A stretch of DNA of 33,896 bases from Alphaproteobacteria bacterium (GTDB lineage Bacteria > Pseudomonadota > Alphaproteobacteria > JABSOH01). A program made the position numbers and the translations under genes. Location of the stretch: contig JABSOH010000003.1 in the NCBI GenBank assembly GCA_013216065.1, positions 5,684 to 39,579 of the forward strand, read 5' to 3'. This document shows, piece after piece, positions 4,884-8,985 of the stretch; within the stretch, counting starts at the first letter, position 1, and each line of letters opens with the position of its first letter. Below the pieces are notes generated by a model. It was not told where the DNA came from, did not search any database, and saw only the letters and a list, made by a program, of their open reading frames with translations.

Positions 4884-4899
4884 TGGCCTTGAAATTGCA
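4884..4899 (+). promoter_or_regulatory. Sigma54 (RpoN) -24/-12 promoter upstream of fliK-flgD
   Basis: TGGCCTTGAAATTGCA has GG at positions 2-3 and GC at positions 14-15, matching the spacing of consensus TGGCAC-N5-TTGCW. It lies 34-88 nt upstream of the candidate fliK starts. Confidence 0.75.
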
Positions 4900-4986
4900 T
4901 GCCTTTTAAGGACATCGCGTGGGTATCGTTGCGTGTCAACAATACAGACGATTTGGTCTTGGCCAAGAGCTTTTTTGAGAATCAGC

Positions 4987-7599
4987 ATGAACTTAGGCGG
5001 AAATTTTTTGCAGCAAATTCTGGGCGACAAAACCCAGATCAATCCGTTCGGTCGGGGTACTGCTTCTGAAAGTGTATCGAAGTCGCGGGGCAAGCCGTCT
5101 TCAAAGGGGCATCGTACGGCGGACGAAGATTTGTGTGAGTTTTCCGACAAGAGGTTTGTGCGCCATCTCGAAGACTTTCGTTCAGCAGAAAAGCAGATGG
5201 AAGACACTGCCAAAAATCGCCAAGGTGCCCCTAAGCACGAATTGCGTCGTGCTACAGACCGTCAAGAAATTGCAGATTCACGGGAGGAATCTCAGCCGCA
5301 TAGCGTGCTGATCAGTTCTGAAAATGCGTCAAAACGTTCGGTGCCAGAAAAGCCGAGCGCAAAACCGAAAACTCCTGTGCCAAAACAGTCGCCGTTGTCT
5401 CAGACTCCATCTTCTCGGGTAAGTCCCCGCCAGCCAGTGCTGACAAAAGATGATGCCGGGCTTGTCGCGCCGGAAGAGGCGTTGCCCAACTCTGTTGGGC
5501 AAACCACCCTAGCTATCGATCTAGTGCCTACTGTGCTGAATCCCGTGATTGATCCGGTACCCAAAGGCGCGCTGGTTGAGTTGACTGCCCCGGTTATTGA
5601 TCCGGTGTCGACGGTTGCACAGTCTGCGCTCGACCTAACTTCCGCAGAGCCTGCGGTGAAAAAGCCGGGGACATCGCTCGGGACGGTGGTGGCAAAATCT
5701 AATCCAGACGCCGCTGCGCCGCCGATCATTTTGATCAAGGCTCAGGTCACGAAGCTTGCTGGGCATTTGCAAATTCTGGGCGTGGTTAGTCCAAATCCCA
5801 CGCAGATATCTGATAGCGATTTTGCCCAACGGCTGGCCATTGAAATCTATGGTCTGATTGATGCCATCGCCAAAGTTGCGCGACAATTTGAATCGAGTCC
5901 TGAGTGCCTGCAAGGTCAGAGCCTAGTGATTGCCTTGCCGATAGAGGCGCAAAAGCCTCTGGAACTTCTTACTGAACTGCAAAATATTCTTGATGCGGAC
6001 TCTTTTGCTGCACTGCTGGGCAATTTGCCGAAATTGATCTCTTTAAGCCCTGAGCAAGAGACGGATGTGCAGCGGCAACTTCAGACATTTCAGCCAGCAG
6101 AGGATTTGGGCGGCAAGCAGTCGGCACTTTTTGTTTTGCTACAGCTCCAAGAGTTAAAAACCACACCCATCTTGCCTTCTGCAACGAACAAGCTCGAAAC
6201 TTTACCCGAATGGCTTGCCGAGGCCGAACCAATCGCAACACCGACGAGTTACGCCCCAGCGAAATCGCTGCCAGCAGATTTGGGGCAGGTATCGGATACT
6301 GTAACCTGGAATGATGGTGGAGTTCTACGCCAAAAGCTCAATTACCAGGCTGCGCAGTACATGCAAACTCAGCGTCACACCCTGCCGATGCATTTGCAAG
6401 CACTCTCGCGTATTCCGGCTCTAGATAGTGCCGACTATGCCGCTTGGGTGCAGAAGGTAGCACAGATTGTTCATCAGGCAAATTTTACGCCTGCGGTCTC
6501 TGCTGGTCAGGTTACGGTCATGCCTTCTGTCTACGTCTTTGAAGATCCCGAAGTCATGCGGCTACTGCAAATGTTGCCGATTTCGACGCTACGCGATGTC
6601 GTGCGCGGTGCCGGACAATTATCGCGCCGCGTTGCGGCGCAGAGTACTTTGGTCCACTCGCAAGGCGTGATACGGGGAATGCAAACCCAGACCCAGAATT
6701 TGCATCAGAGCCATACCCATGAAAGTCCGCGCACTGGTGGGGCATCTCAAGACGCAGGGGTGATCCCTGAAAAAGTCTATCAGCAGACACTTGATCAGGA
6801 ACAGACTCACCCCGTCTCTGATCACGGAACCTTGCCTAAGGGGGTGGCAAAAGATCCGAACTCTACCAGCTTGATGCGTGGTCTGACCACGGCAGTCCCG
6901 ACTACCCACAATCGTGCTTCCGAACGCGATATTCGCGCGATGACGGGCAAGCGTCCTGCTCTTGCGCCAAGCCGTGATCAGCACACCGAACGCAAGGGCG
7001 GAGCAACGGACACGCGGCGTGTGGTATTTGATGCGGTGCAACAGCGTCTGGCGGAAGTTGAGCCCCTGCATCAGGGCCAGGTGCAGAGCTTTGAGTCTGT
7101 CGATAACGCGGCCTTGACACAGAAACTCAATGCGCAGTTTGCGGCACAGGCCGCGCGTAATCAGCATCAAGAACAAGTCGCGCGCATAGCAAAGCATATC
7201 CGTACCCAAATTACGATGCAGGTTTTGCGTCAGGCGCAGGTCAACGCTGAAAGCGTCGAATTGCAGTTGAATCCGCGTCGCTTGGGCAAGATGGAAGTGC
7301 GGATATCGCGCGAGGTTGGCGGCAAAATAACGATCAATTTTGTGGTCGAAAATCCTGAAGCCCTTGAGGTTCTGCGCAACTCTGCTAACAGCTTACTGCA
7401 ATCTCTGCGTGAGGCGGGCGTCAATGCCGACAGAGGCACGATGAATTTCATGTTGAAGGAAGAAAATCGTCAAGCTTTTGAGCAAAAACAGAAGAAAAAC
7501 ACGGTCCCCGGTCTGCCTGAAGACGAAGAGGATTCGATTCTCGAAATAGGGCAACTTGCAGATATCGACGCTGACGGCCACGTCAATGTGCGTGTGTAG
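4987..7599 (+). CDS. fliK: Flagellar hook-length control protein FliK (unusually long, Pro/Gln-rich)
   Basis: The C-terminal region ELQLNPRRLGKMEVRISREVGGKITINFVVENPEALEVLRNSANSLLQSLREAGVN matches the FliK C-terminal (Flg_hook) domain. The N-terminal two thirds are low-complexity and Pro-rich, as in FliK rulers. Its position directly upstream of flgD-flgE fits. I chose ATG 4987 (MNLGGNF...); the ORF is open from GTG 4933. Confidence 0.8.
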   Translation: MNLGGNFLQQILGDKTQINPFGRGTASESVSKSRGKPSSKGHRTADEDLCEFSDKRFVRHLEDFRSAEKQMEDTAKNRQGAPKHELRRATDRQEIADSREESQPHSVLISSENASKRSVPEKPSAKPKTPVPKQSPLSQTPSSRVSPRQPVLTKDDAGLVAPEEALPNSVGQTTLAIDLVPTVLNPVIDPVPKGALVELTAPVIDPVSTVAQSALDLTSAEPAVKKPGTSLGTVVAKSNPDAAAPPIILIKAQVTKLAGHLQILGVVSPNPTQISDSDFAQRLAIEIYGLIDAIAKVARQFESSPECLQGQSLVIALPIEAQKPLELLTELQNILDADSFAALLGNLPKLISLSPEQETDVQRQLQTFQPAEDLGGKQSALFVLLQLQELKTTPILPSATNKLETLPEWLAEAEPIATPTSYAPAKSLPADLGQVSDTVTWNDGGVLRQKLNYQAAQYMQTQRHTLPMHLQALSRIPALDSADYAAWVQKVAQIVHQANFTPAVSAGQVTVMPSVYVFEDPEVMRLLQMLPISTLRDVVRGAGQLSRRVAAQSTLVHSQGVIRGMQTQTQNLHQSHTHESPRTGGASQDAGVIPEKVYQQTLDQEQTHPVSDHGTLPKGVAKDPNSTSLMRGLTTAVPTTHNRASERDIRAMTGKRPALAPSRDQHTERKGGATDTRRVVFDAVQQRLAEVEPLHQGQVQSFESVDNAALTQKLNAQFAAQAARNQHQEQVARIAKHIRTQITMQVLRQAQVNAESVELQLNPRRLGKMEVRISREVGGKITINFVVENPEALEVLRNSANSLLQSLREAGVNADRGTMNFMLKEENRQAFEQKQKKNTVPGLPEDEEDSILEIGQLADIDADGHVNVRV

Positions 7600-7644: not shown

Positions 7645-8874
7645 ATGAGTAATACGATCCCAAATACTACTGCGCAAAGTGCGATCAATGCTGCGACGGC
7701 GAGTGCTGCGGTTGGCGCGGCGAATGCCGGTGGCAGGACGAGTCAGTCGCTGAAGACGCTGAGTGATAATTTTGGCAGTTTTCTGAGGCTGTTGACGGTG
7801 CAGTTGCAAAATCAGGATCCGCTCTCGCCGATGGAAACCCACGAGTTCACCAGTCAGTTGGTGATGTTTGCCGGGGCTGAGCAGGCAATCTCGACGAATC
7901 AGAAACTCGATACCTTGATCGGGATTGGGCAGAAGAATGAAGCCAGCCAGGCATTGAACTATTACGGCAAACAAGTGCGAGTAAAGGGCAATAAGCTGTC
8001 GTTCCAAGGCGAGCCAGTGACCTTCCAATATACGGCCCCTGCCGAGGTTGCTTCTGCCGAGTTGACCGTGCGCGATAGTGCGGGAAAGGTCGTGTTTACC
8101 AAGCCGCTGGAAACCTCGCAATTTCAGCAGGGTGAGCACAATTTGACTTGGGACGGGCGTAATCAGTACGGTTATCAATTGGCTAAGGGGCTATATACTG
8201 TCGTGGTTTCGGGTAAAGACAGCGCGGGGAGCCTGGTAAATACCAGTGACATGACGGTGACGGCGGCGGTCAAGGGTGTCGAGCATAAGAACGGTAAGAC
8301 TTGGCTTAATATGGGCTATTATCAGGTGACACTGGATGATGTTGCTTCGATCACCATGCCAGGGCTCAATGTCGAGGATCAAGTGCGCGCAATGAATTTC
8401 GTCGGCAATAATGTACTCATCATCGGCTCCACGGCTCAGGTTAAAAACGGGCGGCTTAGCCTTGCGTATAACACTGCCGGGATTGCCAATTTCGGCAAGG
8501 CCCTCGGTTCAGAGATCTTGAAGGCTGTGAAACTGAAATTCTATAATCAAAGCGGCAGTCTCGTCAAAACTCAAGATATCACGGCAAAAATGGATATGGC
8601 CAAACTCACTGGCGGTGAGAAGCGTATCGACATGACTATTCCAGATTTGATCAATAACAATTATCGCGTCGAGATGCAGGTTGATTTTGCCGGATCGGGC
8701 AGCGTCACTGGCAGCACCTTCAACAAAATTCCGATGGGCTATTCCGGGAAGGTGCGTCGCGTGGTGTTTAATAATGGCGAAATTCGTCTTGAGATCAACG
8801 GCGTACTGTATAATCCAAGCGATGTTGGTTCCGTGATCAGCAGCGAAACGCCAGTGTTCAAGCTGTCATCGTAG
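7645..8874 (+). CDS. flgD: Flagellar hook capping/assembly protein FlgD with a duplicated C-terminal module
   Basis: N-terminal signature FLRLLTVQLQNQDPLSPMETHEFTSQLVMFAGAEQ. An Ig/FnIII-like segment reads GEHNLTWDGRNQYGYQLAKGLYTVVVSG. RBS AAGGATGAAGG precedes ATG 7645. At 409 aa it is much longer than usual FlgD proteins. Confidence 0.9.
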   Translation: MSNTIPNTTAQSAINAATASAAVGAANAGGRTSQSLKTLSDNFGSFLRLLTVQLQNQDPLSPMETHEFTSQLVMFAGAEQAISTNQKLDTLIGIGQKNEASQALNYYGKQVRVKGNKLSFQGEPVTFQYTAPAEVASAELTVRDSAGKVVFTKPLETSQFQQGEHNLTWDGRNQYGYQLAKGLYTVVVSGKDSAGSLVNTSDMTVTAAVKGVEHKNGKTWLNMGYYQVTLDDVASITMPGLNVEDQVRAMNFVGNNVLIIGSTAQVKNGRLSLAYNTAGIANFGKALGSEILKAVKLKFYNQSGSLVKTQDITAKMDMAKLTGGEKRIDMTIPDLINNNYRVEMQVDFAGSGSVTGSTFNKIPMGYSGKVRRVVFNNGEIRLEINGVLYNPSDVGSVISSETPVFKLSS

Positions 8875-8877
8875 GTT

Positions 8878-8893
8878 TGGCATACAGATTGCT
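8878..8893 (+). promoter_or_regulatory. Sigma54 -24/-12 promoter upstream of the first flgE
   Basis: TGGCATACAGATTGCT has GG/GC at the canonical spacing. It sits immediately after the flgD stop and 93 nt before ATG 8986. Confidence 0.75.
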
Positions 8894-8985
8894 TTGCTAG
8901 AGGCTTGGATAGTTTGATTTTTTTGATCTTTTTTGTTGATCTCCACAATTCATGATCAATGCACAACAGTAAAGGATACGGTCTC

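Follow-up and report, generated by a model that had tools for sequence, protein, structure and literature searches.

The flgD gene of the window, by which we mean the whole stretch of 33,896 nucleotides of alphaproteobacterial DNA that was analysed, encodes a FlgD protein whose C-terminal half was confirmed, by sequence comparison and predicted fold, as a real second Tudor/Ig-like FlgD module arranged co-linearly behind the first one. The original prediction had proposed such a tandem copy of the hook-cap module, and it was borne out by profile-profile alignment (hhalign) and by AlphaFold2 modelling followed by Foldseek searches. The coding sequence lies at 7645..8874 on the + strand (409 aa plus the stop codon), and all the peptides quoted in that prediction were present in the 409-aa translation of this open reading frame (ORF); the interval assigned to the second half was also exact, running from the opening base of codon 247 (8383) to the final base of the stop codon (8874).

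Domain organisation of FlgD

The protein consists of an N-terminal stalk region, a first module, a linker, a second module and a tail of 9 residues. The FlgD N-terminal domain (PF03963) was identified at 7720..7911 (+ strand, residues 26-89) with a Pfam E value of 6.2e-17 (62 bits against a cut-off of 27), and its LLTxQLxNQDP motif was invariant in the alignment with relatives. Long helices were predicted at residues 28-55 and 65-104 (AlphaFold2 secondary structure); these match the part that forms the stalk in Salmonella and is indispensable for function there (PMC8595650).

Module 1, the first "petal" (7945..8358, + strand, residues 101-238), showed the arrangement sought in a FlgD, a Tudor-like domain interrupted by an Ig/Fn3-like domain. 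Both parts scored above the Pfam cut-offs, FlgD_ig (PF13860) at residues 115-192 (E 4e-20, 72 bits) and the split Tudor domain (PF13861) at residues 99-233 (E 8e-9, 36 bits). Foldseek matched the full-length model to 7bhq, 7eha, 3c12 and 3osv, with a TM-score of 0.80, normalised by target length, against 3c12 and 3osv. A linker (8359..8382, + strand, residues 239-246 in the AlphaFold2 model) joins the two modules, and after it a short helix was predicted at residues 243-252, where the pLDDT was lower (about 73).

Module 2 (8383..8844, + strand, residues 247-400) is a diverged Tudor-like domain split by a diverged Ig-like domain, with the Tudor strands at residues ~247-262 and ~366-400 and the Ig-like part at ~263-365. 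The Ig part has a 9-residue insertion with respect to the bona fide second modules of relatives and two extra short helices with respect to module 1, the strand order being otherwise the same in the full-length AlphaFold2 model. The W-DG motif, invariant in all the other modules, is missing from the module 2 Ig part of the window clade. The C-terminal tail (8845..8871, + strand, residues 401-409, SETPVFKLS-S), defined from the alignment and the AlphaFold2 model, includes an invariant T-P pair and an extra predicted beta-strand, and is confined to the window's own clade. An internal start for separate expression of module 2 was considered and dropped, the Met at residue 250 being Leu in P0006.

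Relationship of the second module to FlgD

When residues 247-409 were scanned alone against Pfam, a sub-threshold match to the split Tudor domain was obtained (E 0.065, 13.9 bits against a cut-off of 26.9), aligning residues 1-148 of the segment to profile positions 4-57 with the same split topology as in module 1. No match to PF13860 (FlgD_ig) at the gathering score was found with Pfam in these residues or in module 2 of two clade relatives, and the Ig-like domain of module 2 was recognisable by profile-profile comparison and predicted fold only. Because the W-DG motif was lost and the Ig part was undetectable by Pfam, module 2 may act differently from module 1.

The profile search that was to decide the FlgD-like nature of this half stayed below threshold in Pfam; it was hhalign and a module HMM that linked the segment to FlgD. 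The module 1 and module 2 halves matched in BLASTP with an E value of 0.007 across 51 residues of the Ig part. By hhalign, over 126-131 columns in two comparisons, module 2 of the window clade matched module 1 with an E value of 1.9e-5 and the bona fide module 2 of relatives with an E value of 1.7e-8 (95% probability, 126 columns). The module HMM, which was built without any module 2 from the window clade, matched residues 248-385 co-linearly at HMM positions 2-120 (i-E 6e-3).

The relatives used in these comparisons came from a database search, which gave six full-length proteins of 394-413 aa with 55-69% identity to FlgD of the window, as well as a second group of FlgDs of 362-384 aa from alphaproteobacterial assemblies (hereafter the ~370-aa group). 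With both groups in one alignment, the ~370-aa proteins show a second half that obviously repeats the first; when these second halves were scanned alone with Pfam, four of four passed the FlgD_ig gathering score and two of four that of the Tudor domain, and hhalign aligned module 2 of the group to its module 1 with an E value of 9e-43.

In the full-length AlphaFold2 model the pLDDT was 82-91 across most of module 2, going down to 61 near residues 351-360, and the pTM was 0.52, the relative placement of the two modules being uncertain. We know of no solved FlgD structure with two modules. Residues 245-409 modelled separately reached a pLDDT of 81.5 and a pTM of 0.73, and the 18 best PDB matches of this model in Foldseek were all crystal or cryo-EM structures of FlgD, a result to be read with the bias towards the FlgD fold that comes from the bona fide FlgD modules included in the alignment behind the model. 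The best match was 3c12 (E 4.8e-7, TM 0.57/0.65), while the next, unrelated match had an E value of 0.05. The predicted structure of the second half was in this way FlgD-like, as had been anticipated, and a second Tudor-like domain with an equal split topology was found after the first one by sub-threshold Pfam, hhalign and Foldseek. The "different beta-rich insert" that had been described between the repeated boundaries is indeed beta-rich, but rather than an unrelated insertion it is a diverged Ig/Fn3-like domain homologous to FlgD_ig.

These data also bear on whether residues 247-409 could be a beta-rich domain with no relation to FlgD, or else an artefact produced, for instance, by misassembly or by two genes having fused. 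The lack of a significant Pfam match in the segment alone would agree with it, but hhalign, the locally built HMM and Foldseek all indicated FlgD, the same single ORF was present in independent assemblies from different samples, and module 2 is not preceded by its own N-terminal FlgD domain, which would be expected of a fused second gene. We regard this explanation as hardly credible.

Conservation of the second module

The module 2 reading frame was intact in 7 clade members, which were 55-69% identical overall and shared 49 invariant columns in this module, and no truncated or frameshifted module 2 was seen in close relatives. Mean identity within the clade was 78% for the N-terminal region, 64% for module 1 and 58% for module 2 overall, with 73% in its Tudor part and 51% in its Ig part. 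The dN/dS ratio was about 0.10 for module 2 and 0.12 for module 1, both rough values, as dS was saturated in most pairs. In a tree of the modules, the stem branch of module 2 of the window clade measured 3.1 substitutions per site compared with 0.65 for module 1, and the terminal branches of module 2 were as short as those of module 1. Taken together, the sequences indicate that module 2 is maintained under purifying selection after a fast post-duplication divergence.

A decaying and functionless duplication remnant, tolerated because of its position at the C-terminus, would fit a module whose divergence from module 1 (20-25% identity) far exceeds that of every other second module and whose Ig part is unrecognised by Pfam. 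It would not be expected to keep its frame intact in 7 clade members with 49 invariant columns, to show a dN/dS of about 0.1 or to have a fold confidently predicted by AlphaFold2, and we consider such a relic very unlikely.

Recruitment of module 2 outside capping, as a binder of another flagellar protein or of some component of the surface, sheath, cell wall or host, seems quite unlikely to us. FlgD is shed on hook completion. The very long stem and the lost invariant motif, followed by conservation, are a typical change-of-function pattern; the C-terminal tail is conserved and clade-specific, and FlgD_ig-like domains abound in large surface proteins that are not flagellar (110 of the best 150 matches of the profile search reported below). 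However, no ligand-binding family matched module 2 in Pfam, and its best-conserved part is the Tudor domain (73%), which mediates petal contacts in Salmonella.

Recurrence and origin of two-module FlgD proteins

A FlgD match was present in 214 of 400 sampled species genomes of the same class. Besides the window genome, five genomes of this sample belonging to four families carried a full-length two-module FlgD (G090, G165, G305, G270 and G378), in four of which Pfam recognised two FlgD_ig stretches, the second half being diverged in G378. Identity between modules 1 and 2 of the same protein was 51-55% in G090, G165 and G305, 28-44% in G270, G378, the ~370-aa group and P0025/P0027, and 20-25% in the window clade; by this measure FlgD of the window is the most diverged instance of the doubled layout among those examined.

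In the module tree, modules 1 and 2 of G165 and G305 fell in one clade (support 100), those of G378 were sisters (support 96), those of G090 grouped together (support 89), and those of the ~370-aa group were placed in one clade (support 88). This grouping within proteins indicates that the whole-module tandem duplication arose several times independently in Alphaproteobacteria. Module 2 of the window attached to P0055, probably as a long-branch effect of its stem of 3.1 substitutions per site. The AU test rejected neither a clade uniting it with module 2 of the ~370-aa group (p 0.54) nor a clade uniting modules 1 and 2 of the window, as in a duplication within the lineage (p 0.62).

When 1.84 billion representative proteins were searched with a profile, the best 150 matches included at least 33 clusters (50% identity) of FlgDs of roughly 360-550 aa with two or three full modules, the other 110 matches being large surface proteins (900-7800 aa) with 5-25 FlgD_ig-like repeats. 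The architectures included three complete Tudor/Ig modules in P0166 (553 aa), one full module plus Tudor(Ig-Ig) in P0131 (454 aa) and Tudor(Ig-Ig-Ig) in P0241 (408 aa), so some of the variants repeat the Ig domain only, inside a single Tudor barrel. No description of duplicated FlgD modules was found in the literature searched. The doubled layout is thus recurrent and visible in domain databases, yet undescribed in that literature.

Several long candidates were discarded. A 416-aa open frame in G005 was found to hold a 220-aa FlgD, open-frame lengths being unreliable as gene lengths, and the FlgDs of G263, G194, G037, G328 and G295 were single-module according to the module HMM. Two other genomes, G061 (L024 220-1251) and G231 (L032 243-1193), encode a one-module FlgD with an unrelated C-terminal extension of ~75 aa, and their flgE reading frames are about 1200 aa long.

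The flgD gene and its neighbourhood

The gene order in the window was fliK-flgD-flgE-flgE-fliF-fliG, followed by a MotA-type gene, a sigma54 activator and flhA, placing flgD in a flagellar hook cluster beside fliK and flgE. The fliK-like hook-length gene immediately 5' of flgD (4933..7599, + strand) encodes a very long product of 888 aa, whose PF02120 match was limited to residues 763-834 and in which the FliK C-terminal domain occupies the last ~70-120 residues only; the length of fliK-like products was 856-956 aa in relatives of the window clade compared with 478-551 aa in the ~370-aa FlgD group. The fliK stop codon is separated from flgD by 45 nt, with a Shine-Dalgarno-like AAGGA upstream of flgD. 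This gap contained no sigma54-like motif, suggesting that flgD is probably co-transcribed with fliK. Sigma54-type -24/-12 motifs (TGGC-N7-TTGC) were located at 4884-4899, 8878-8893 and 10915-10930, just upstream of fliK and of the first and second flgE genes, respectively, although the number of such motifs in the whole window was not above chance (18 found compared with 15.6 expected), their positions alone being telling.

The longest ORF of flgE paralogue 1 spans 8959..10785 (+ strand). Translation of this gene probably begins at the ATG at 8986 and not at 8959, because the product then opens with MSLYSALRSGVS, an N-terminus in common with the start of the second flgE; a GGA-rich ribosome site lies just upstream of this ATG. 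Paralogue 2 (11015..12862, + strand, 615 aa) is 42% identical to paralogue 1 over the full length. The window's own genome (G000) contained a further frame of 529 aa (contig C191:5719-7245), with rod/hook-type N- and C-termini and similarity to the product of the second flgE (E 1e-6 to 1e-11), and this frame possibly represents FlgK or a third protein of the hook type.

Tandem flgE genes and the size of FlgD

The original prediction had speculated that a doubled cap module encoded directly upstream of a doubled hook gene could be an adaptation to two hook subunits. Across the loci compared, tandem flgE genes were neither necessary nor sufficient for a two-module FlgD, and what stood of that link was a loose co-occurrence of the two. 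Single-flgE genomes with a two-module FlgD, which had been named as evidence against the link if they occurred widely, were found in part: G090, G165 and G305 (94-100% complete) each had a two-module FlgD and one flgE in the whole genome. At the metagenomic loci of the ~370-aa clade, where only adjacent copies were counted, five of six had a lone flgE with flagellin or other genes behind it, and the doubled FlgD of the P0010 locus was accompanied by two adjacent flgE genes. Conversely, tandem flgE genes coexisted with a single-module FlgD in G211 and G141.

In the window's own clade, 2-3 tandem flgE genes were present at all four informative loci. Tandem flgE arrays were found in 8 of the 222 flgE-positive genomes (five families), and FlgD was enlarged in three of these five families (f1, f35 and f54). 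In f35 and f54, arrays of 2-4 flgE genes lay beside FlgDs of 317-344 aa enlarged by a second Ig domain (Ig-Ig). These were encoded in f35 by G035 (L019 6177-7130) and G340 (L022 2044-3012), and in f54 by G054 (L020 8413-9447), with four flgE genes in a row, and G354 (L021 6393-7412), with three. As the Ig-Ig variants were found only through the inspection of multi-flgE genomes, and members of one family are not independent, the enrichment count is biased. When whole-module doubling was considered alone and the window lineage was excluded, no visible association with tandem flgE was observed. The co-occurrence of tandem flgE with an enlarged FlgD is suggestive, and we take it as a lead and not as a result.

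One way to read this co-occurrence would be a heteromeric hook, in which module 2 specialised to guide the second FlgE paralogue and the enlarged cap co-evolved with tandem flgE. The four informative loci of the window's clade, the P0010 locus with its two flgE genes, and the f35 and f54 arrays of 2-4 flgE beside Ig-Ig FlgDs agree with it, all the more as tandem flgE is rare (8/222). Against it stand the doubled FlgDs with one flgE genome-wide in G090, G165 and G305, the single adjacent flgE at five of six ~370-aa clade loci, the single-module FlgDs of G211 and G141 in spite of their tandem flgE, the ascertainment of the Ig-Ig variants via multi-flgE genomes and the non-independence of the members of one clade, and we judge it unlikely. 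A broader version, that FlgD gains an extra module (whole or Ig-only) in lineages with several FlgE proteins, which it would sort or template as hook subunits, with module 2 of the window handling the second paralogue, is likewise improbable in our opinion, slightly more so than the heteromeric hook itself.

The size of FlgE was also considered as a reason for the doubling and was dropped, FlgE having 435-443 aa in G090/G165 and about 443-464 aa in G305, compared with about 600 aa in the window. A separate alphaproteobacterial genome of ~2 Mb (G174) carried on contig C2 six dispersed flgE-like genes, from 515 kb to 1.2 Mb, encoding about 485-526 aa, and a single-module FlgD of 250 aa.

Comparison with known systems and a model of the hook cap

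The best structural matches of both the full-length and the module 2 models were canonical FlgDs, namely those of Salmonella enterica (232 aa; 7EHA/7EH9/7BHQ), Xanthomonas (3C12), Pseudomonas (3OSV) and Helicobacter (4ZZF/4ZZK). FlgD of the window has in common with them the N domain, the Tudor barrel split by the Ig domain and a gene located between fliK and flgE, and differs from them by an extra complete Tudor/Ig module and a conserved tail, which bring it to 409 aa compared with about 220-250 aa; the original prediction was right that the protein is longer than is typical. The other two-module FlgDs of Alphaproteobacteria (about 362-398 aa; P0008-P0017, G090, G165, G305 and G270) share with it the N domain followed by [Tudor(Ig)] x2 and the fliK-flgD-flgE cluster. 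Their module 2, however, has FlgD_ig above the Pfam cut-off and is 28-55% identical to module 1, whereas that of the window is 20-25% identical, has lost W-DG, bears insertions and the tail, and gives no above-threshold Pfam match. The same building block was likewise duplicated within the FlgDs enlarged by Ig domains only (G035, G340, G054, G354, P0024 and P0241), but with the Ig repeated within one Tudor barrel as Tudor(Ig-Ig) or Tudor(Ig-Ig-Ig). A precedent for a multi-tier cap head is the filament cap FliD (HAP2), a pentamer with N-terminal legs and a multi-domain head plate (PMC8595650), although FliD has no sequence or fold relationship with FlgD and caps the filament, not the hook.

The Salmonella hook cap is a pentamer with five N-terminal helices in the stalk and five C-terminal Tudor/Fn3 domains as petals; the N-terminal region of FlgD is its minimal functional part, and the petals make hook assembly efficient (PMC8595650). 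By homology to this protein, FlgD of the window would form a pentameric cap at the hook tip and would be a substrate of flagellar type III export (PMC8595650). The reading that we favour, and hold to be rather probable, is that of a hook cap with two petal modules per subunit, produced by whole-module duplication, divergence and constraint, whose second modules make up an extra tier of petals. Beyond the architecture, its conservation and its recurrence, which are established here, we infer this second tier and its effect on hook assembly by analogy.

Accepting the two-tier cap, FlgD of the window would be a hook-cap protein with the usual N-terminal export/stalk region and two tandem petal modules, the second of which would have come from a tandem duplication of the whole C-terminal module followed by very fast divergence (about 3 substitutions per site on the stem). 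As in Salmonella, five N-terminal helices would build the stalk, and the first modules of the five subunits would make up the canonical ring of petals. Their second modules, each attached through the short linker (residues 239-246) to the C-terminal end of its first module, could then form an additional outer or distal tier, giving a larger or stiffer cap over the folding FlgE. The gain of C-terminal modules would be tolerated and recurrent because what FlgD needs for capping and export resides in its N-terminal region, and because, in contrast to FlgE and the rod proteins, Salmonella FlgD carries no export signal at its C-terminus (PMC10936197).

The finding is modest rather than major, since the architecture was already visible in domain databases, though undescribed in the literature searched. 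The repeated independent doubling suggests that enlarging the cap brings a selective advantage in some flagella. If the co-occurrence of an enlarged cap with tandem hook genes holds, the architecture of the cap would be tied to hooks made of more than one protein. The petal domains of Salmonella raise the efficiency of hook assembly only; FlgDs that carry one, two or three petal modules in nature, in some cases among close relatives, offer material for probing what exactly the petals do.
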